DNA from: a virus
Taxonomy: Duplodnaviria > Caudoviricetes
DNA: 64,000 nucleotides
Direction: 5' to 3' (one strand)
Virus record (IMG/VR): IMGVR_UViG_3300032007_000061
Coordinates: 15,881-79,880 of that record
Position 1 is the first letter of the stretch, and each line of letters begins with the position of its first letter. The notes under the pieces were generated by a model. It did no database searches. It was given only the letters and a program-made list of their open reading frames with translations, and was not told where the DNA came from. A program made the position numbers and the translations under genes. Shown in pieces: positions 2,380 through 63,100 of the stretch.

Positions 2380-3966
2380 ATGGCGAGAAAATTATATGCA
2401 CCGAATGTAACCATCAATTTTGCACCGTCTGAAAGACAGCTGGAGTTGTGGGAGAAGCTACAGCCAGCAAAGTGTGACAAGTGCGGTGGACGTATTGAAA
2501 TGCGTCAGCATGGGGTGGATGAGAAGGGATTTCCAGTATATGAGGCCACTTGTGTTGAGTGTGGCAATACGGACATTCCAGAACAGATTCTTGGTGGTGG
2601 AGCAGCTGGTGGAGGAAAGTCTTACCTTGGCTGCTGCTGGCTTGCTATCAGCTGCATGACATTCCCGAATATCCTGATGGCTGTTGGCCGTCTTACGTTG
2701 AAGTCTCTGAAAGAATCTACATGGAGAACCCTACTGAACGTACTGAAAGATTGGGGCCTGAAAGAAGATGTGCATTACCATATCAATAATCAGGCAGGCT
2801 CATTGACTTTCTGGAATGGCTCTACGATATTGATGATGGAGCTTTCACCATCACTGCAGGACCCAGACTACAACCGATTCGGTTCTATAGAAATTACCGG
2901 TGCCTTTGTCGATGAGGTTGCGGAAATACCAGAAAAGGCTATAGAAGTCCTTGCTTCACGTATTCGTTACAGGGTGGCAGAGACGTTTGTTGTCGGTAAA
3001 CTGTTCATGTCATGTAACCCGACGCAGGCATGGCCACGTAAGACGTTTGTGATGGATGATGACGGTGAACCAGTCGTATTGAAGAAAGGCTATAGGTATG
3101 TGCCGTTCTCAGTGTTTGACAATCCTAATGAGGGTTTCCGTATCGTCTATATCAACAGGCTAAAGAAGATACGTGACAAGGCTACCAGGGAAAGACTGCT
3201 TTATGGTAACTGGTTGTACCCATCAGAGAATACGATGGCTGCATACTGGAATTTTGACGGGGAGAAGCACTTAGCCATGAATGTCATGGAAAAGTATTAC
3301 AATCCGATGAACCCGATTATCCTCTCTCTTGACTTCAATGTGAATCCGTATATGTCTTGTCTGGCAGTCCAGATTGATTATACAGATAAGCACGTCTATG
3401 TTTTCCCAGAATATGTTGGCTATGCAAAGGATAAGCTTAACAACACACCGGCAATGTCTCGTCATTTGGTCAAGTCCATGAGAGAGATACGTCATATTGG
3501 CGGCATCATCCTCACTGGTGATCCAGCCGGACGTGCAAGGTCAACTCAGACAGAACAAGGTGTGAACAATTTCACCATCTTGTCTGATACGTTGAGAAGT
3601 GGCGGTTTTAGGACCGAGACAAAGCTATTCGATAAGCAACCGTCACAGATAACCAGATTGGAGTTCGTGAATGAGCTTTTTGACGGTTATGAGGGCTGGA
3701 ATATTGTCATAGATGTGAGGTGTAGGAGACTGACTGAGGACTTGACCTACCAGAAGAAGAATCCCGATGGAACTAAGGAAAAGAAGAAAGTTCAGATGGA
3801 TACTGGTGAAAAGGCAGAGAAGTACGGACACTTGTCAGACTGCCTGGACTATATTTTAACCTATTTCCTCAGAGAAAGCTATAATAAATATAGAAGCGGC
3901 TCATCAACTTCAATCGTAACAACGGTGTCAGGAAATGGGCAGGTTTATGATTCATTCGGATATTAA
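2380..3966 (+). CDS. terL: Large terminase subunit
   Basis: Walker A GGAAGGGKS, Walker B AFVDEVAE, motif SCNP, nuclease motifs LSLDFN and GHLSDCLDY. Confidence 0.93.
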   Translation: MARKLYAPNVTINFAPSERQLELWEKLQPAKCDKCGGRIEMRQHGVDEKGFPVYEATCVECGNTDIPEQILGGGAAGGGKSYLGCCWLAISCMTFPNILMAVGRLTLKSLKESTWRTLLNVLKDWGLKEDVHYHINNQAGSLTFWNGSTILMMELSPSLQDPDYNRFGSIEITGAFVDEVAEIPEKAIEVLASRIRYRVAETFVVGKLFMSCNPTQAWPRKTFVMDDDGEPVVLKKGYRYVPFSVFDNPNEGFRIVYINRLKKIRDKATRERLLYGNWLYPSENTMAAYWNFDGEKHLAMNVMEKYYNPMNPIILSLDFNVNPYMSCLAVQIDYTDKHVYVFPEYVGYAKDKLNNTPAMSRHLVKSMREIRHIGGIILTGDPAGRARSTQTEQGVNNFTILSDTLRSGGFRTETKLFDKQPSQITRLEFVNELFDGYEGWNIVIDVRCRRLTEDLTYQKKNPDGTKEKKKVQMDTGEKAEKYGHLSDCLDYILTYFLRESYNKYRSGSSTSIVTTVSGNGQVYDSFGY

Positions 3967-5566: not shown

Positions 5567-5610
5567 AGTAGCAAATTTGTGCGAGTAATGTGATTAAAAG
5601 CAGATTAGGT

Positions 5611-6876
5611 ATGATTTCCATCAACTACCAAACTTATGGAAGCAGAGGTCTGCAGCTACGTCTCAGGTTCTATCTGGACGGCCAGACCAAGTTTATTAAC
5701 GTGACGAAGTTGCTGAAAGGTAACTTGGTGAAACGGCACTGGAATACCAAGAAGAAGTGTTTCTACTCCAGTGCCCCTAATGCGGATGAGAACAACCGCA
5801 TACTTGAAAATTTCCGAAAACCATACGATGAGCGTTCAAAGACATGGATTGGCACACTGGACGGTTTTATGCTTTCCTTTGATGAGACGGCCAATGAAGA
5901 GCCAGAGGAAAGGCACACTCTCAGATGGGTATTCCAGTATTTCATTGACGAAATGAAGCGCAACGGCAGGAATGATGACGGAACCATCAGTGGGGGCTAT
6001 GAGCCATACGAAAAGACCATCAAGCGCATGGAGGAATACTGCCAGGACGTTCGCATCAGTCTCGACAGCCTGACTTTGGAGGACATGACACCTCAGTTCA
6101 TCAATAAGTTTCTGGAGTGGATTGTGAATCGTGGAAATGGGAAATGTCTTTATGTCTCAGTATCTCTTCATGCCCTGCTTAACAAAAGCGATAAGATGGG
6201 CTGGTTTGACATAAAGGACGTGGAGCGATGCAATTGGTTCAAAAAGACTGGTAAGAGCACTAAGAAATATCAGACCCTTACCAATGCACAATGCAAAAGA
6301 TTTGTGGCCCTGACGAAAGAAGAGCTGCCCAGAGGCCAAAATACTGAGCTATATCGTGACTTTTGCACCTTTATATTATATACGTGCCAAAGTACGTGTG
6401 ATGCCGTCTCTCTCCAGTATAAGGACATTCAGACTATCAACGGTGTTGACCATTTCGTGTTCAAGCGCAGGAAGATAGCCAGCAAGCAGTCAATTGATTG
6501 CTCTGTGCCTATCAATCCAGTCATGCGAGACATAATGAAACGCTGGAAGCCTTACTCAAAGGACGGCTATATTTTCCCGATAAGGAGCAAGGAAAGGATT
6601 GCTTCCAGTGTCATTAACAATGGTGACATCAAGCATTTTCTCAGCAAGATCAATACCTGGTTGAAGAAAGTGACCGACATCATCAAGTGTCCTTTCCCAT
6701 TGCACACATACGTCTTTAGGCATACTGGCATTACCCACTACATCAGCAAGGGCATACCAGTCATCTATGTGGCGAACCTTGCCGGAACCTCAGTTGAGAA
6801 TTGCGAGAGTATCTACTACAACAACCAAGGAGATACTACCAGCCGTGACAAGGTGCTCAATGCGATTAAATTCTAA
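5611..6876 (+). CDS. int: Bacteroidales-type tyrosine integrase (arm-binding + core-binding + catalytic domains) with a degenerate box I
   Basis: N-term LRLRFYLDGQTKFI..HWNTKKK; box II YVFRHTGITHY, LAGTS..SIYY; box I reads YTCQSTCD instead of TGxRxSD; follows a tRNA. The ORF track starts it at GTG 5590. Confidence 0.85.
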   Translation: MISINYQTYGSRGLQLRLRFYLDGQTKFINVTKLLKGNLVKRHWNTKKKCFYSSAPNADENNRILENFRKPYDERSKTWIGTLDGFMLSFDETANEEPEERHTLRWVFQYFIDEMKRNGRNDDGTISGGYEPYEKTIKRMEEYCQDVRISLDSLTLEDMTPQFINKFLEWIVNRGNGKCLYVSVSLHALLNKSDKMGWFDIKDVERCNWFKKTGKSTKKYQTLTNAQCKRFVALTKEELPRGQNTELYRDFCTFILYTCQSTCDAVSLQYKDIQTINGVDHFVFKRRKIASKQSIDCSVPINPVMRDIMKRWKPYSKDGYIFPIRSKERIASSVINNGDIKHFLSKINTWLKKVTDIIKCPFPLHTYVFRHTGITHYISKGIPVIYVANLAGTSVENCESIYYNNQGDTTSRDKVLNAIKF

Positions 6877-15580: not shown

Positions 15581-15991
15581 CTACTCCAGCCACTTGTGTC
15601 TATCAGAGAGTTTGATTGAACAATGGAAATAACTGAGGATAGCCAACAATGTGTCAATGGATAGCAGGGCTTGTCCGTCCTTTGGCTTGGTATATCTGAT
15701 ACCTATCCTGGGATTCAGGTCTTTCAGCTCCATGCCATTGTTATGCAGCAGCTGTTCTATCAGTTCATGGCAATCGTCAACAGAGCCAACCCTATAATGC
15801 TCGTCAATGTTGTAATCCCATACGAAAACACTACAATTGAGCGCATCGGTATAAAGAAACAGGCTTGTCACTGAATACGATGACTTACCAGCTTCAATGG
15901 ACTGGATGACGTAGGCACTCAGTTTGTCGCTCTTGATGTCCTTGCCGTCCCTGATGTCGGCCAGCTTCTTTCCAAGTTCAATTCTGTTCAT
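15581..15991 (-). CDS. XRE-like HTH protein (two degenerate HTH units)
   Basis: ELGKKLADIR..IQSIEAGKSSYSVTSL; second unit ..LSIDTLLAIL. Confidence 0.55.
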   Translation of the reverse strand: MNRIELGKKLADIRDGKDIKSDKLSAYVIQSIEAGKSSYSVTSLFLYTDALNCSVFVWDYNIDEHYRVGSVDDCHELIEQLLHNNGMELKDLNPRIGIRYTKPKDGQALLSIDTLLAILSYFHCSIKLSDRHKWLE

Positions 15992-48866: not shown

Positions 48867-50207
48867 ATGCGCAAGAGAATTGAAGGAGCATCAAACGGTA
48901 TGTTTGTAGGAACCACCCCACTGGAATCCTATTATAATATTGTGAAAAAGACCGTGCAAGAGTACACATTGGAGCTTACACGGCATTGTCGCTACAAATC
49001 ACTGGTCAGCCAGACTGAGGACGGCACTATTTTGGATGACCGCTCACGTCTTATCGACCAGTATGATGCTTGTCTCATTCAGGATGCTCATTTGCAGGCA
49101 GTTATTGAGACTTTGTTCTCCCACATGCTTGGTGAAAGATATATGCTTGCAAAGCAGGATGCGAATGGTAAATGGGTTCGTGATGTTGAGCAGTCCAAAA
49201 AGATTCAAGGTACACAATTCGAAAAGATTATCAAGGAGATTCTGTATGCACAGCTTTACGGTTACTCTTGCATTGAGATACTTCCAGATGTTGATCCTGT
49301 TACTGGATTGTTGAAAGAAGTCAATTCTATAGAGCGCAGAAATGTGCTCATCAGCCAACGCAGAATCATCCAGCGTCAAGGCCAGTGGCTCCCAGGTTGG
49401 AACATCATGTCTGAGACATATAAGCACAATTATATTCCAATTGACACTGGTGGCCTTGGTTTGTTTGCCTCTACCACCCCATTGGTTCTCGCTAAGAAGT
49501 ACACCATTGCCAATTGGGTCAACTTTAGCCATACATACGGCCAGCCCATCATTCATGGTAAGACACCGAATGAGAGTTCAGATGACCGTAACCGTCTTGC
49601 GCAGGAGATAGCCAATGCAGCCCAGAAAAAGGTGCTGGTTACTGGTACTGATGATTCAATTGACATCAAGACGTTCACGATGTCTAACTCAGAAATGATT
49701 TACAAGAGCCTTTTGGAGTTCACCAACATGGAGATTTCCAATCTGATTCTTGGTTCTGAGAGTATGGCAGGTGCTACTCAGTCGTATGTCGGTTCCACCA
49801 AGGCCCATGAAGATATATTCCGTGCTCGCATTAAGACCTATCGTCGTATCGTTGAGAATGCGATGAACGAGCAGGTTCTTCCAGTGCTGAAATATTGGGA
49901 TTATGTTCCAGCTGATGTGTTCTTCAAATATTCCAATCAGATTGATATGTCGATGGAGAACAAGATTAAGCTGTACGATATGCTTACCAATAAGTACGAA
50001 ATGTCAGCTGAAACCATTGATGCAGACTTTGGTATTACTGTTGGAAAGCAGTTCAATATTGGTATGTCTGGTGGTTCCGTTGCCGGTGGTGAAGATGGTA
50101 ATGATGACCATCATATCATGTCAGATGAGGAATATTATCGCAGGTATGGCCATCGTAGGGGCGAGAAAGTCAATGCTAAAGTAAATTTTCTGGACGAGGT
50201 GCGGTAA
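48867..50207 (+). CDS. Portal protein (DUF935 / Mu gp29-like)
   Basis: LVLAKKY..W..F...YGQPIIHGKT; SQ..VGST..HED; first gene of the head module; ATG 48867 preferred over TTG 48789. Confidence 0.85.
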   Translation: MRKRIEGASNGMFVGTTPLESYYNIVKKTVQEYTLELTRHCRYKSLVSQTEDGTILDDRSRLIDQYDACLIQDAHLQAVIETLFSHMLGERYMLAKQDANGKWVRDVEQSKKIQGTQFEKIIKEILYAQLYGYSCIEILPDVDPVTGLLKEVNSIERRNVLISQRRIIQRQGQWLPGWNIMSETYKHNYIPIDTGGLGLFASTTPLVLAKKYTIANWVNFSHTYGQPIIHGKTPNESSDDRNRLAQEIANAAQKKVLVTGTDDSIDIKTFTMSNSEMIYKSLLEFTNMEISNLILGSESMAGATQSYVGSTKAHEDIFRARIKTYRRIVENAMNEQVLPVLKYWDYVPADVFFKYSNQIDMSMENKIKLYDMLTNKYEMSAETIDADFGITVGKQFNIGMSGGSVAGGEDGNDDHHIMSDEEYYRRYGHRRGEKVNAKVNFLDEVR

Positions 50208-50224
50208 GAGGCGACCGTATCTCG
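50183..50224 (+). other. Predicted -1 ribosomal frameshift signal (portal to minor head protein)
   Basis: In-frame A AAT TTT heptamer, 5-nt spacer, 11-bp hairpin. Confidence 0.65.
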
Positions 50225-51106
50225 AAAGTATATGATAGCCTTACAGAAGAAGAAAAAAATAAAAACCAAAAGGAATCAGAAAATCTTTTGGCTCTCTTCA
50301 CTGATTTGCTGAAAAATATCGGTGACAGAGAATCGAGAGAGCGTATTTTGGGTGAAATGATGTCACTCAGGGCGCAGTATGCCATCGGTCATGCCATTGA
50401 TGGTTTCAAGATGGATATTGACGAGGCATTGACGCTTTTGAAGAATACTAAAGATAATACCCTTACTAAAGAAGATACCGAAAAGCGTGACAGACTGGTA
50501 GCAGCTGTGAATAATCTAACTGAGTTTGCGGTATGCCAGGAATACCAGATGTATAAGGACGTTTTGAGGTACAATCCGAATATTTATGATGAGGAAATAG
50601 ACTTCAATGATGAGGATGCACTTTCTCCTTATTATAATATATGCAATAAGTACAACGACACTTATGCAGCCGTTGAGAATGGCGACATCAAGTATGCTAT
50701 GGGTATAGCATATCAGTGGTTGTGGTGCTCTCCGACAACCTATCTCACTTACATGACACAGAACGATGATCGAGTAAGACCTTGGCATTATGCACTGCAA
50801 GGCTTTACTGCCAGACGTGATGATTTCCCAAGCTGGATGATACCGCCGATTGAATGGGGGTGCCGTTGTTTCCTGATGTCAGAAAGTGGTGAAATTATTG
50901 CCAATAAAGACAGAATAAAAGATGTCAAGGCATCATTTGAGGTTCCTGAGAAACCATCCCAGCTTGACAATGTTTTTGCTGAAAGTGTTGCTAAGTGTGG
51001 CCGTATCTTTGGAAAGGCACACCCATATTTCAAGGTTGCAAGGGCCGATAAGGACAAGCTGAAAGAATATGTTGAAGATATAAGGAAGCAGTATTATGCC
51101 GAATAA
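50189..51106 (+). CDS. Mu F / SPP1 gp7-like head morphogenesis protein (frame open from 50180; first TTG 50288, first ATG 50357)
   Basis: LTYMTQNDDRVRPWHYALQG..PPIEWGCRC. Confidence 0.85.
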   Translation, partial: SGRGAVRGDRISKVYDSLTEEEKNKNQKESENLLALFTDLLKNIGDRESRERILGEMMSLRAQYAIGHAIDGFKMDIDEALTLLKNTKDNTLTKEDTEKRDRLVAAVNNLTEFAVCQEYQMYKDVLRYNPNIYDEEIDFNDEDALSPYYNICNKYNDTYAAVENGDIKYAMGIAYQWLWCSPTTYLTYMTQNDDRVRPWHYALQGFTARRDDFPSWMIPPIEWGCRCFLMSESGEIIANKDRIKDVKASFEVPEKPSQLDNVFAESVAKCGRIFGKAHPYFKVARADKDKLKEYVEDIRKQYYAE

Positions 51107-51845
51107 GAAAGGGACATCACGTACTGGTGGCATAGGTTCCGGCGGTTGGATAAACGTACCTAAAAGCTACAGATATTCATTTCCAAAGGGAATTGTAGAA
51201 AAGAGTCGTTCTGGCAATTTCCGTATTGCACGAAGATTTAGCAAAGAGGAAATGAAGTACCAACCATTTTCTGCATTAAATGCTGGCAGAAGAGGCATCG
51301 GATATATTAGTGGACGTGATTTTTCAAAGCATTTATTCTCTATTCGTGAAAAACTATCTATCAATTCTCAGAATTTTGCCGTTATTGTATCTCTTCGTGC
51401 GATAAAGGTGTTTCAAGATTCTTTTAAATATAAGCGGTTTTATTCAGATGGCGGTGATAAATGGCCGGATTTGGACGAAAAGACTGTAAAAAAACGTATT
51501 AGAAAAAACACATGGCCTGGTGCTGGTGGTATGCTTAGAGAATATGGTGATATGTTTGAATCCATATCTACTACAGCGAGAAACAATAAAAGTGGAGTAA
51601 CTAAAGGCGTTCGTATCTTTACAGACCCATCGAAATATAACGGTCATATTTATTACGATAAAAGGGGTGGCGTTCATAAAGATGGCTCTGGTTTCTTTTG
51701 TTATGCAGGTTTGCATAATGAAGGTGGCCGAATAAGAGGTGGCCATAAATTACCGAAACGCCAATTTATTGGTCATTCAACTTATTTACTAGACTTTGCA
51801 TTTAAGCAAGCTGACAAATATCTGTTCTTTAATGTATTCGATTGA
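51096..51845 (+). CDS. Virion morphogenesis protein (Mu gpG-like)
   Basis: SF...F...G..W; ML..G.MF.SI; YAGLHNEGG..LPKRQFIG. Confidence 0.7.
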   Translation: MPNKKGTSRTGGIGSGGWINVPKSYRYSFPKGIVEKSRSGNFRIARRFSKEEMKYQPFSALNAGRRGIGYISGRDFSKHLFSIREKLSINSQNFAVIVSLRAIKVFQDSFKYKRFYSDGGDKWPDLDEKTVKKRIRKNTWPGAGGMLREYGDMFESISTTARNNKSGVTKGVRIFTDPSKYNGHIYYDKRGGVHKDGSGFFCYAGLHNEGGRIRGGHKLPKRQFIGHSTYLLDFAFKQADKYLFFNVFD

Positions 51846-55658: not shown

Positions 55659-57137
55659 ATGACGAACACAAACTTAGGTGGTGTCTTTACGAAAGACACT
55701 GACGGTAACATCGGTTCTGGCGCACTTGTCAGCACCGAAAATGTTTGCGGTATCATTTTCGACACAAATGGGTTTACCACTCCACTTGGTAGCGGCGATG
55801 CTGCTACTATATTTGCCAATGGCAATGTGGTTGAAGTGAACTCCATGAAGGATGTCAAGGCTGCTGGTATTGACGAGACCATCATGGGTGGCCTTGTTTA
55901 TCATCACCTTAACAACTTCTTCACTCTCGCAGGTAACAACCAGCGTCTGTTCGTGTCGTTCATGGACTCTTCTGTTGATACCACGTTCACGGCTATTGAG
56001 CAGATGCAGCTCGCAGCTAATGGTATCATCTATCAGATTGGCTTGTGGACCACCCAGCCATTCGCACAGCAGACCGTTGAGTACAAGGAAGTTGCCAATC
56101 CCACTGGTAATCCTGCTTCACAGCACTATTACAAGAGAAGTGGTGACAACTATGTTGAGGCTTCTGAGACTGAGGTTGCCAGCAACACCACTTACTACAC
56201 GGCCAGCACCGCCTTTGGCGTTATCGACAATGGCATCCTTACCAAGCTTCAGAATCAGGCAGAGGTTCTTGGTGGTAAGATTGACGTTATCAACTATGAG
56301 GGCTTCTCTCCTGTCAATATCCTGCTTAATGCACCTGTTGCAAGTGTGGCAGAGATTGACATCACGAAGCTTCCCGACCTCTCTACACTCGACCTGCCGA
56401 AGGTGTCTGTACTGCTTGGTCAGCCCTCTAACGATGACGTTCATTCCATCCAGGAGAAGCTTGGTGGTTATGCAGTCGTTGGTAACATCGGTGCTGCACT
56501 TGCTTGTCTGGCCGTTGCTCCTGCAGAGGTTAGCTTGGGTTGGGTTGAGAGCTTCAACCTCGCAAAGGTTATGACCAATGCAGAGCTTGGTTTCGGTAAT
56601 CTGGTACGTGCTTCTCAGGCTACTGACGGTGTTTACAAGTTCACGGCTGCCGCTGCTTTCACTAACATCAAGACCTTGGGCTACACCAGCCGCAATAACA
56701 ATCTGCACCGTAAGGGATACATCTTCCTGACCGACTATGCCGGCATCGAGAACGGTGTATTCTTCTCTTGCGATCAGACTCTTAGCACTGGTGACTATCG
56801 TACTATCGGACGTGGCCGTGTGATGCACAAGTCTCGTCGCGTAGTCCGTCTGGCACTTCTGCCTTACGTGAACTCTACATGGGAGCTTGACGCTTCTACT
56901 GGCCGTCTGTCAGCTTCTGACATCACCATGATTCAGAACTTGGTCATCAATGCTCTGGACGTGAACATGGTTGAGCCTGGCACTTCTAAGCCTCAGATCA
57001 GTGGCCGTAAGTGTGTCATCGACGGCACTCAGAACATTCTTGCGAATGATGAGCTGCACATTGACTACGCTATGGTTCCTGTTGGCTGTACGTCTGCTAT
57101 CTATGTCACTGAGGGTTTCACCACATCTGTTAAGTAA
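55659..57137 (+). CDS. Tail sheath-like protein 1 (DUF2586-like)
   Basis: Precedes the tube; C-term DYRTIGRGRVMHKSRR..ISGRKCVID.QNIL..LHIDY.MVPVG. Confidence 0.75.
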   Translation: MTNTNLGGVFTKDTDGNIGSGALVSTENVCGIIFDTNGFTTPLGSGDAATIFANGNVVEVNSMKDVKAAGIDETIMGGLVYHHLNNFFTLAGNNQRLFVSFMDSSVDTTFTAIEQMQLAANGIIYQIGLWTTQPFAQQTVEYKEVANPTGNPASQHYYKRSGDNYVEASETEVASNTTYYTASTAFGVIDNGILTKLQNQAEVLGGKIDVINYEGFSPVNILLNAPVASVAEIDITKLPDLSTLDLPKVSVLLGQPSNDDVHSIQEKLGGYAVVGNIGAALACLAVAPAEVSLGWVESFNLAKVMTNAELGFGNLVRASQATDGVYKFTAAAAFTNIKTLGYTSRNNNLHRKGYIFLTDYAGIENGVFFSCDQTLSTGDYRTIGRGRVMHKSRRVVRLALLPYVNSTWELDASTGRLSASDITMIQNLVINALDVNMVEPGTSKPQISGRKCVIDGTQNILANDELHIDYAMVPVGCTSAIYVTEGFTTSVK

Positions 57138-58743: not shown

Positions 58744-60054
58744 ATGCCAGGATTAGGATACGTTTCATTAGGCAAGCTCAATTTGCTCAATGCCACATTC
58801 TCTTTTGACGAGAAGATATGTGGTATGTTGTTTGATTATGGTATGTATGAGGACCCGTTTGATGACCATGTGCAACTGGAGAACTACTTTGGTAATAACC
58901 AAGTGTGGCTCATCCGTAATCTGGAAGAGATTGAGGAAATGGGATTGTCAGATGAGTTTATGAATGGAGTGCCTTACTATCACATCAAGCAGTTCTACGA
59001 TTATGTCGGTGCCGATGCTGATTTGTATGTTATGTTTTCCAATTGTATCAGTAATGGAAAGCCTGACTTTGAGGCCATTCAAATTATCCAGCAGGCATCT
59101 AATGGAAAGATATTCCAATTGGGCATTTGGACTGAACAATGTATCTGGAAGTCAGGTTTGAGTGACTATGACTTCACCAGCTTGCTTGGTGAAATAGAAT
59201 CTCAGGCAGAGGTTCTTTCCGGCATTGTGAATAAGACTGCTGCAGATGGTTTGCCACTCAGTGTTATACTCAATGCTAATACGGCAAAAATTGATGATGT
59301 TGACGGCAAATATGTCGTTGACCACAAGAAGATACCTGATGCAACCAGCTTGAATTTTCCGAAGATTTCAGTTATCCTCGGTCAGAACGGCACAGATGAA
59401 GTTCACGAAATGCAGTTGGCCAATAACCATAAGACACCAGTTGGAATGATGGGATTGGCACTCGCTTGTCTTTGCCTTTCATCTGCTGAAATGAATATCG
59501 GCTATGTTGACAAGTTCGACCTCAATAAGAATGATGATCTGAATGACGCTGAATTAGGTTTCGGTAATGTTGGCGGTGGTGATTACACCCCTATCAAAGA
59601 CCTGAATAAAGTCAGAAGAAACATTATCTCGCTCAAAGGCTACATATTGCCAACTACTTATAAATCAAAGGAATCTGGCATCTATTTCAGCAATGACCAG
59701 ACCTTATCGGAGCGAGACTTTTCCACTATATCATTGAACCGATTGGCTCATAAATGCCGTCGAATCATCAGGTCAGTCATGTTTCCATACGTCAACGGAA
59801 ATATAGACATCGACCCGTCATCTGGTGCTGTCAACTTAACGGAACAGACCAGAATCACCAATCTCATTATCGAGCGACTGGATGCTAACATGGTCAATCC
59901 TCTTGGTCAGGAGCAAATTAGTGGAAGATATGTGAAATTTGATGATACCAAGAATATCCTTATGACCGATGAGTTGGACCTGAACTGCTACTTTGTGCCA
60001 GTGGGTTCAAACATGGCTATCGACATCAAGGAAGCCTATATTCTTAACGAATAA
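58744..60054 (+). CDS. Tail sheath-like protein 2 (paralogue of 55659-57137)
   Basis: Shared blocks IFQLGIWT, SQAEVLSG, PKISVILGQ, AELGFGN, FSNDQTLS, ISGR..NIL..VPVG. Confidence 0.75.
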   Translation: MPGLGYVSLGKLNLLNATFSFDEKICGMLFDYGMYEDPFDDHVQLENYFGNNQVWLIRNLEEIEEMGLSDEFMNGVPYYHIKQFYDYVGADADLYVMFSNCISNGKPDFEAIQIIQQASNGKIFQLGIWTEQCIWKSGLSDYDFTSLLGEIESQAEVLSGIVNKTAADGLPLSVILNANTAKIDDVDGKYVVDHKKIPDATSLNFPKISVILGQNGTDEVHEMQLANNHKTPVGMMGLALACLCLSSAEMNIGYVDKFDLNKNDDLNDAELGFGNVGGGDYTPIKDLNKVRRNIISLKGYILPTTYKSKESGIYFSNDQTLSERDFSTISLNRLAHKCRRIIRSVMFPYVNGNIDIDPSSGAVNLTEQTRITNLIIERLDANMVNPLGQEQISGRYVKFDDTKNILMTDELDLNCYFVPVGSNMAIDIKEAYILNE

Positions 60055-60114: not shown

Positions 60115-63100
60115 ATGGCCGAAACAAAGAATTATATTGTAAATTATGACATAATTACCAATGTTGACAAGGCTCTTGGTCCTTTGAAAGAATTTGAGAG
60201 AGTTGCCAATGGACTGTATAGTAATGCGGAAAAGTTGTCTGAAAAGACTGGTCTTTCTCGTATTAATGCGGAAATGGATGATTTTTTGCGTCGTATTGAA
60301 AATGTGAAAAAATCATTCGAAAAGATTCAGCCTGCATTTAATCTGCAACATTTACAAGATAATCTTAGAACGATGGAACGTATGGTCAGCAAATCTGCTG
60401 GCAATATGAGAACCTCCATCCAGTCTGCCTTGTCTGGTGCAAATCCTAAAGAAACACAGCTATCACATGGTAATAGGTCGCTGATAAACAATTATTTAGA
60501 TGAAATAGATAGGGTTGAGAAAATCGTTAAGGAAAAGAAAAAGAAACTTAACGATATGTTACCACCGGACCCAAAATATCGTACTCGTACAACAAGAGAT
60601 ATTCTTAGTGCATACGGTGATCCAAGAGAATTACCAGAGTTTATTGAATTAGACAAAGACATTAAGGATCAACAAAAGTATCTAAAGAATATCAAGTCAA
60701 AACTTGCAGATGCAAGAAAAGAGTACAATACTGCTGCAAAATCTGCTGGAAGTCCTTATCTGCCGAATGATTTGATGAGTCCAAAACAATGGCGTGCCCT
60801 TCAAATTAATGGTAAAGAAGCTGATGTCGCAAGACAACAAAGGATAAGGGATGAGTATGCAAAGCAACTTCGTGACGCGAGGGCCGCTGCTTATCGTGAA
60901 ATGCCAACACAACCAACAGTTATTCCACAAAATATGTTGGAAACTGTTGGTATGATTCCTCAATTGGAAACTGCATACGAAAATGCTAAAAATATTGCCC
61001 GTACAAAAAGAGCTGAATTGTCTAAATCAATTACGGCCCCATTAAGTGTTGCAAGACCAGATTTCTATGACACTTTCAAAGAATATGATAGTGCTATGAA
61101 GAGATTTGGTTCTACAGATGATATTGCAAATCTCGAAGCAGCAGAAAAAGCAAAGCAACACATCATGCAAGCTGGTGGGTATGATGAAAAGCAGTTTAAT
61201 AGGTCATACAAACAATTTGGTGAATATGAAAAGTATTTATCTGAATTGACAAAATGGAGAGAAAAGCTTGAACGCTTTGAAAAATCCTTCAAAAATAGTA
61301 ATGTCTATCAAAGCAGACGTTCTGCACTTCTTAGACTAAGAGAAGCTTACGCAACACAGCGTCAAGTAGATGCTATGCGTACAAAAGCAGAAATCGTCAC
61401 ACCATCAACATCATCAGTATCTACTGGTGGCTCTACGACTTCTATTTTTGGCGGTCAATCACAGATAATAGAAAAGGCATTTACTGGAAAATTAACATTA
61501 ATACCAGATTTTGCTACTGCAAAAGCTACGATAGCCGCTGAACGCTTTAGTGCTAATGTAAGCCTTGTTCCACTTATAAGTGAATTGCGTACTAAGCTTG
61601 GTTCTGAAATATTCAAAATCAATGTAGAAGCTCAGATTGCAAAATCAAAAACAAAGGGAAAGAATGGTGTTACAGGGGCAATTGGAGTTTTACAACAAGA
61701 GTTGAATCAATTGCAGCAAAGTGCAAAAGCCCCAATTTCTGTTGGAACACAATTAGACCGTAGTGGTTTATTAGCACGTGCTTCAAGCGGTTACAACACC
61801 CTACAAGAATTAGCAAAACGTCATCCTATAACCTATAAGCTTGCATCTGATGGCAGTGGTGGTTTCAGCCTTAATCAGGCTTTAGCACGATTGACAGAAC
61901 TTGCAAAGAGCCGTCCTGTACCATTCAAAATGGTGCATGATGGCAGTGGTGGCTTTGCTTTGAACCAAGCACTTGCACGTCTGCAGTCGCTTGCTAACAC
62001 ACGTCCTATCCAGTTAAAGACCGCATTATCTGGAAACGGTACGATTAACGTCAACTCTATTAAGCCAACTGGTTCCGTTAATGTGCCGTTGAGAGGTGTT
62101 CTGTATAAGAAGAACATCACGCCACCATCAACACCCATCCAGGTTAAGGTTGCCGCTAAGATAGCTGGTGGTAACAATAAGAACTTTGGACTTAATATCA
62201 ATACGCTTGGTCTTGAATCCAAAGTTGCTCAATTGGAGAGACTTCGTACCGTTTGGGCATCACTTCCCAGAACTGGTAGCAGAACATATACTGTCAACTT
62301 AAAGACCACTGGCCTTGAAAATATCGCAAGGTTAGAGCAGCTATTGCGTTTGGTCAATAAGATGCCGCCATCTGATCGCAGGTCATACAATATTGCCGCA
62401 AGAGTTAGTGAAACTGGTGGTCGAACAACAACTATCGGTGCCATTGGAGGCAGTCGCAGAACACCAGTATATACCAAGTCTGCTGACGATTTCTACACAC
62501 GTTCCCGTAAGTGGGCTTATCCGTTTACTGGTAACACCTCATTCGGTGCTCGTACTCCAGCTGCCTTTGATATGATGAAGGGCATGGGTGTTATGATGGG
62601 TATCGGTGGTGCTATGGGTGTCATCGGTGGTTCATTCTCTGATGCCGTCAACTACCAGAACGTGATGGAAACGGCAAGGGCCATTCTTCGTGACAACTAC
62701 AAGGGCAACAACTTCAATTCGGACTATGCTGACATGGTTCGTGTTGTAAGAGACGTGGCCATGCGTACCAAGTTCACGGCTCCAGAAGCAGCCGATGCAG
62801 CTCGGTTTATGGCTATGGCTGGTTTGGATATTCCTGCAATTAAAGGGGCAATATCTCCTATAGCAGATGTTGCCGCTATTAGTGACATGGATTTGGGCAT
62901 TGTTGCAGATAAGATGACCAATATTATGACCACTTATCAGAGAAGCCCAGAGCAGATGCGCAACCTTGCAGACATGATGACCAAGACGTTCACCAGCACC
63001 AATACCGACATGATGATGCTGGCAGAATCGCTGCAGTATGCTGGTCCTATGGCATTTGCTTCTGGTCAGTCACTTGCTGAGACATTGGCTATGATCGGTA

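Follow-up and report, generated by a model that had tools for sequence, protein, structure and literature searches.

A probable programmed −1 ribosomal frameshift joins the portal protein to a MuF-like minor head protein in Bacteroidales phages

Introduction

Programmed frameshifting in tailed phages is known from several structural and assembly genes. In phage lambda, a −1 frameshift yields the tail assembly chaperones gpG and gpGT (Levin 1993; Xu, Hendrix and Duda 2004, as reviewed in PMC5009743). The major head and major tail genes of Lactobacillus phage A2 undergo −1 frameshifts, and SPP1 gp17.1* arises from a +1 frameshift (PMC5009743, PMC6316719). Shift motifs of the class H_HH.U_UU.Y are among the most efficient, as measured in E. 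coli rather than in Bacteroidales (PMC4066793).

The portal is regarded as a homo-oligomeric ring, and MuF as a minor protein distinct from it. In SPP1, the MuF protein gp7 is directed to the interior of the head by the portal, to which it binds non-covalently, and is present in 1–2 copies; it raises infectivity, which is ∼25% without it (PMC6316719, PMC5576092). Some other MuF proteins carry toxin domains directed against bacteria (PMC5576092). In-frame portal-MuF fusion genes exist in Microbacterium phages EA3, EA5, EA8 and EB (PMC7302621). Our literature search, in which coverage of subscription journals was thin, found no report of a portal-to-MuF frameshift; the PRFect paper names MuF-like genes only among its “false positives” (PMC10885494).

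Here, we analyze the portal-MuF junction of a phage in which the MuF coding region lies in the −1 frame of the portal gene. The conservation of this junction among relatives supports the idea that some portal subunits very probably carry MuF as a frameshifted extension.

Results

Genome context and host

The window, i.e., the whole stretch of 64,000 nt that was analyzed (positions 15,881 to 79,880 of IMG/VR record IMGVR_UViG_3300032007_000061), is part of a virus record of 79.9 kb that is 72% complete and contains integrase and terminase genes. The head and tail genes follow the order portal, MuF, neck, protease, probable capsid, two sheaths and tube. Relatives are viral contigs of 90 to 120 kb and prophages, mainly from Bacteroidales genomes, and include the cultured temperate phage BS-TP1 as well as prophages of the cultured strains Phocaeicola coprophilus DSM 18228 (L209) and Bacteroides oleiciplenus YIT 12058 (L212). 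The window has the look of a temperate Bacteroidales myophage, and its relatives point to Bacteroidales as the probable host of the record.

The terminase large subunit and tyrosine integrase genes are located at 2380-3966 and 5590-6876 of the window, ∼45 kb from the portal gene. The phage thus appears to be temperate with site-specific integration, and combines a head module of the Mu type with a terminase gene set apart from it. Two DUF2586 tail-sheath paralogues (55659-57137 and 58744-60054) lie on either side of the tube gene and two small genes, and an ORF of tape-measure size begins at 60115. The small genes between the sheath paralogues showed no strong −1 signal in a window scan that took ORFs of at least 100 codons.

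Slip site and hairpin at the end of the portal gene

The features of the junction are as follows.

48867-50207, + strand: Mu-type portal gene (PF06074, E 1e-47), 446 aa, zero-frame product
50177-50179, + strand: TAA closing the −1 frame just 5' of the slip site, read from the sequence
50183-50189, + strand: slippery heptamer A_AAT_TTT, Asn-Phe codons, in X_XXY_YYZ phase with the portal
50190-50194, + strand: 5-nt spacer CTGGA, read from the sequence
50195-50224, + strand: candidate stimulatory hairpin of 11 bp with an 8-nt loop, from folding and covariation
50189-51106, + strand: coding region of a minor head protein of the MuF / SPP1 gp7 type in the −1 frame, with 305 codons following the slip (PF04233, phrog_220, fold matches)
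50288-50290, + strand: TTG, first possible MuF start, inside the conserved first helix; TTG in only 4/60 relatives
50357-50362, + strand: ATG ATG, the first ATGs, in poor initiation context and inside helix 47-72 of the structural model
51096-51845, + strand: next gene, neck / tail completion (phrog_26, profile match)

A sequence-only reading of this DNA had proposed a −1 frameshift that fuses the portal to MuF, and its coordinates for the heptamer, the 5-nt spacer, the 11-bp hairpin, the TAA at 50177-50179, the TTG at 50288 and the ATG at 50357 are all correct. The portal gene starts at the ATG at 48867, as set by the homologue consensus MRKR, and its zero-frame product of 446 aa has a mass of 51.0 kDa. 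Its 3' end reads GTA AAT TTT CTG GAC GAG GTG CGG TAA, with the stop codon at 50205-50207. The −1 frame is open from 50180 to 51106, and the predicted slip product has 746 aa and 85.9 kDa with the junction ..KVNF-SGRG...

The hairpin arms (50195-50205 and 50214-50224) form 11 pairs, 2 of them G-U, and the last base of the 5' arm is the first base of the portal stop codon. The hairpin has a folding energy of −17.3 kcal/mol (z −4.15), and none of 200 shuffled sequences was equally stable. An in-phase heptamer near the stop codon occurs in 4 of the 107 ORFs of at least 100 codons in the window; only at the portal gene is it accompanied by a hairpin and a long −1 frame. A role of the hairpin as a terminator was rejected since it has no U-tract. 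An Rfam search gave no relevant match to a curated frameshift element, and a conserved upstream SD-like stimulator was not seen (10/60 relatives).

Further upstream, the portal C-terminal motif MSDEEYY.RYGH (at about 50120-50155 of the window) is almost invariant between two variable linkers, and is also kept in relatives that have no MuF or a fused MuF.

The heptamer is conserved at the level of RNA

We collected 235 loci and reduced them to 69 representatives at <90% identity, reaching down to 51%. Asn-Phe is present within the last few residues of all 120 of the top 120 portal homologues, after a linker of variable length. The exact in-phase AAATTTT together with an open −1 MuF frame is found in 60/69 representatives, hereafter carriers; in these, the −1 frame after the heptamer spans about 275–320 codons where the contig allows. 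The portal stop codon lies 15 nt past the heptamer in 42 carriers, and the T run of the heptamer is extended in 10. The cultured phage BS-TP1 has the full signal, i.e., heptamer, hairpin and −1 MuF frame.

A second invariant Asn-Phe within the portal (NF.HTYG) served as a control. There, the same seven bases are used in only 2 of 65 sequences, spread over 15 variants, and codon usage predicts about 5.7%. The difference between 60/69 at the junction and 2/65 at the internal site therefore indicates that the constraint acts on the RNA. Because the xNFL residues partly persist in lineages in which MuF has its own start, the amino acid conservation may partly reflect a protein motif.

The hairpin covaries at a short distance from the heptamer

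In the 60 carriers, the 40-nt window immediately after the heptamer has a median folding z of −3.8, with 92% below −2, while nine flanking windows have a median z near 0. The stem starts 4–5 nt past the heptamer in 44/60, at the short end of the spacer range. RNAalifold on a plain MAFFT alignment did not recover the hairpin (energy about 0) because loop lengths vary; we therefore used a pair count on the named structure and a register-free arm-swap test in its place. When the structure of the window was projected onto the unfitted alignment, 10 of the 11 pairs had two-sided changes. None of 500 shuffles matched the paired fraction or the covariation score, and slid registers scored lower; this shuffle test takes its structure from one row and is open to inflation by relatedness. 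In the arm-swap test, the 5' arms, of which 35 are distinct among the 60 carriers, scored 20.3 with their own 3' arm vs. 12.8 ± 0.5 with swapped arms. The hairpin covaries, at a fixed short distance from the heptamer.

The MuF frame has no conserved start codon

The −1 frame product matches PF04233 with 32.7 bits against a cut-off of 29.6, and its fold matches are head morphogenesis proteins; a solved MuF structure was not found by sequence or fold search. The protein is of the short type: it is encoded directly 3' of the portal gene and has 305 aa without a toxin extension or extra domain. The −1 frame is stop-free in all 60 carriers, while the other two frames are stopped in 55/60 and 58/60. 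It is under coding selection 5' of any start: before the first ATG, close relatives differ by 56 synonymous vs. 24 non-synonymous changes in this frame.

The position of the first ATG varies from codon 8 to 161 among carriers. By contrast, the first helix of MuF is conserved (E in 52/60, Y in 48/60 and F in 58/60), and 39/60 carriers have no ATG before it, with 25/60 having no ATG, GTG or TTG. In the structural model, residues 1-8 are disordered, forming a short linker, and residues 20-42 form the first helix with a pLDDT of 93-98; the TTG at 50288 lies within this helix.

Initiation in Bacteroidetes occurs without Shine-Dalgarno pairing (PMC6847099), and therefore we built a start scoring matrix from this phage's own likely starts. 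The ATG codons at 50357 and 50360 scored −7.5 and −4.8, like internal codons. The TTG at 50288 has an A-rich upstream region and scored 5.2 vs. a median of 4.4 for real starts, with C at −3; there is a small opening for minor independent initiation at this codon. An ATG ∼23 codons beyond the heptamer, in poor context, occurs in about a dozen relatives. In GenBank, MuF of BS-TP1 is annotated from a start 114 nt beyond the portal stop.

Exceptions among relatives serve as natural controls

The nine exceptions among the 69 representatives, together with L200, L203 and the fusion P0121, provide natural controls. In a quick maximum likelihood tree, exceptions have about six origins, and each of these falls within a group of signal-bearing lineages; the outgroups are saturated, making the root unreliable, and only this nesting was used.

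Two separate lineages (L071, L072, L078, L182 and L192) have no MuF after the portal, and a gene resembling the phrog_26 neck / tail completion gene lies directly 3' of the portal gene instead. MuF was not found elsewhere in those MuF-less records that were searched, including one that is 100% complete, and MuF appears to be dispensable in this phage family. These lineages have no Asn-Phe, heptamer or hairpin. In a third lineage (L062, L195 and L214), MuF is read in the +1 frame from an ATG of its own, which lies at the portal stop and has a start-like context; the heptamer has drifted and the hairpin is gone. The region folds at −2 to −7 kcal/mol in the MuF-less and own-start lineages vs. −17 kcal/mol where the hairpin is present. 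The xNFL residues are kept in L062 and L195, and also in L203. Finally, in P0121 (one contig, SRR13001973, read at the protein level), portal and MuF form a single in-frame protein of 729 aa that has no Asn-Phe at the junction and is flanked by the same gene neighbors, and P0122 is another such in-frame fusion among the relatives. In an AlphaFold model of P0121, MuF is well folded; with a pTM of 0.46, the model is uninformative on domain packing. A portal-profile search in proteins of >826 aa, a range above that of the 729–746-aa fusions, gave no match. The full signal is thus confined to lineages in which the production of MuF depends on it.

Some relatives show mixed states. In L203, which is near the signal-bearing L153 on the tree, the MuF gene lies in the +1 frame and overlaps the portal gene at a GTGA, A_AAT_TTC is kept and the hairpin is lost. 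L068 and L200 have kept the hairpin and the −1 MuF frame, the heptamer now being G_GAT_TTT or T_CTT_TTC, and have an ATG just past the stem in poor context. These two may still slip on the U_UUU tetramer and may represent an intermediate state.

More distant phages

In the cultured Winoviridae phage Peternella_1 of Winogradskyella (NC_062754, L011:5020-5170), the MuF gene likewise occupies the −1 frame relative to the portal, and this frame opens just 5' of an in-phase A_AAA_AAA close to the stop codon of the portal; the hairpin is weaker, and the annotated MuF start is a GTG about 100 nt downstream. The Flavobacterium phages FPSV-S1 and lotta8-1 have an ordinary MuF ATG instead. Hankyphage p00 (BK010646, L246:13257-13310, minus strand), with a portal 26% identical to that of the window, has T_TTT_TTC and a hairpin 48 nt before the portal end; the MuF frame is open, yet an ATG overlaps the portal stop. 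Virion mass spectrometry of Hankyphage detected MuF in the 250–85 kDa slice; this is uninformative, as the small Gam protein and thymidylate synthase were in the same slice.

Discussion

Here, we describe a conserved junction at which the portal gene of a Bacteroidales phage family ends in an in-phase slippery heptamer and a covarying hairpin, followed by MuF in the −1 frame; lineages without MuF, or with a separate start for it, no longer have the hairpin. We consider it highly likely, on these sequence data, that a programmed −1 ribosomal frameshift yields a 746-aa portal-MuF fusion as the minor product, the 446-aa portal being the major one. The sequence-only reading had proposed to look among relatives for a conserved slippery site, hairpin covariation, MuF genes without a start and natural in-frame fusions. 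The slippery site is conserved in 60/69, 10/11 hairpin pairs change on both sides and the arm swap separates 20.3 from 12.8, 25/60 have no start codon before the first helix, and P0121 is an in-frame fusion from the same clade. Thus, its interpretation is supported by the conserved heptamer, the covarying hairpin and the absence of a conserved MuF start. It had also named homologues with a conserved independent start and neither heptamer nor hairpin as evidence that would speak against frameshifting. No such start is conserved; however, some relatives do have their own start and no hairpin. Because these form a derived minority nested among signal-bearing lineages, they do not refute the frameshift.

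We suggest the following model. Most ribosomes would decode A_AAU_UUU as Asn-Phe, open the hairpin and terminate at 50205, generating the 446-aa portal. In a fraction of cases, the hairpin would make the ribosome stall on AAU UUU; its Asn and Phe tRNAs would re-pair on AAA and UUU, and translation would continue in the −1 frame, giving a 746-aa chain in which portal and MuF are joined by a short flexible linker. Fused subunits would then co-assemble into the portal ring, fixing the number and position of MuF; the slip rate would set the amount of MuF per head, with MuF placed in the capsid interior at the portal vertex. By our arithmetic from the copy number of SPP1 gp7, a slip rate of about 8–17% would match 1–2 MuF per 12-mer. 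Three points of this model are inferences: slipping by ribosomes at this site, its role as the chief or sole origin of MuF, and the incorporation of fused subunits into the ring.

It is improbable, in our judgment, that MuF is instead a separate protein initiated at the TTG at 50288 or a later ATG, perhaps by re-initiation downstream of the portal stop, with the hairpin tuning coupling or mRNA stability and Asn-Phe-Leu being a protein motif. The A-rich region upstream of the TTG, the persistence of xNFL in the own-start relatives L062, L195 and L203, and the downstream start given to BS-TP1 MuF in GenBank are in line with this idea. However, a TTG is present at this column in only 4/60 relatives, a start there would cut a helix with a pLDDT of 93-98, and own-start and fused relatives keep this helix whole. 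Moreover, a protein motif cannot fix synonymous codons, as they are fixed at the heptamer (60/69 vs. 2/65), and in true own-start relatives MuF starts at the portal stop and the hairpin is absent.

Slippage by RNA polymerase, adding one U or A at the A3T4 run, would yield a similar fused protein without a ribosomal shift, and the longer T run in 10/60 relatives would suit it; we regard this as very unlikely, given that the A3T4 run is short and that the single codon phase in carriers and the spacer of 4–5 nt to a downstream hairpin (44/60) correspond to the geometry of a ribosome. Least credible is a junction created by misassembly, or by the breakage of an in-frame portal-MuF gene. An in-frame fusion does exist in the clade; but the same layout recurs in 60 independent representatives, isolate genomes and cultured BS-TP1, and the portal stop lies 15 nt after the heptamer in 42/60. 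Conservation across independently assembled genomes refutes this reading.

Returning to the ribosomal frameshift, portal-to-MuF recoding has very probably been kept across a large family of Bacteroidales phages, judging from their genomes. A conditional fusion would explain both the few copies of MuF and its delivery to the portal vertex. The role of MuF is poorly understood, and it would become testable by tuning a single heptamer to zero, native or 100% fusion. The MuF genes of many Bacteroidales prophages, and of cultured BS-TP1, would then be annotated with false starts, and the same route could meter MuF cargo with toxin domains where present. We lean, with distinctly less confidence than for the frameshift itself, toward a broader scenario in which the phages of this family produce MuF solely as an extension that the portal gains by frameshifting, every virion having a mixed portal ring with a MuF load set by the slip rate. 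If so, tailed phages would have, in addition to the tail chaperone site, a second site of widespread and conserved recoding at the portal-to-MuF junction. Separate, fused and lost MuF all occur in this one clade, and portal-to-MuF frameshifting would then be an evolutionary intermediate between these states.

The suggested mechanism is reminiscent of that of lambda gpG/gpGT, in which some ribosomes slip by −1 shortly before the first ORF ends, so that a minor product with a C-terminal extension is made at a ratio that matters for virion assembly, except that the portal/MuF junction (PF06074/PF04233) is in the head module rather than in the chaperone genes between those for the tail tube and tape measure, has a conserved downstream hairpin, and is expected to yield virion components. 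As in A2 and for SPP1 gp17.1*, a fraction of a virion structural protein would be extended by frameshifting; however, those extensions are on capsid or tail tube proteins, whereas here a whole, normally separate MuF family protein would be added to the portal. The heptamer of the form X_XXZ_ZZN with a 3' structure resembles the signals of IS3-family elements and dnaX (PMC4066793), although A_AAU_UUU is not among the common IS motifs given there and, unlike in IS signals, there is no conserved SD-like stimulator. The Microbacterium fusions have the same domain order in one chain but are single ORFs, whereas here a stop at 50205 intervenes, MuF is in the −1 frame, and unfused portal would also be made. 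Finally, as for SPP1 gp6/gp7, the MuF gene lies directly 3' of the portal gene; SPP1 gp7, by contrast, is a separate protein for which no frameshift has been reported, and the few-copy location in the head, with binding to portal and DNA, is known for SPP1 only (PMC6316719).
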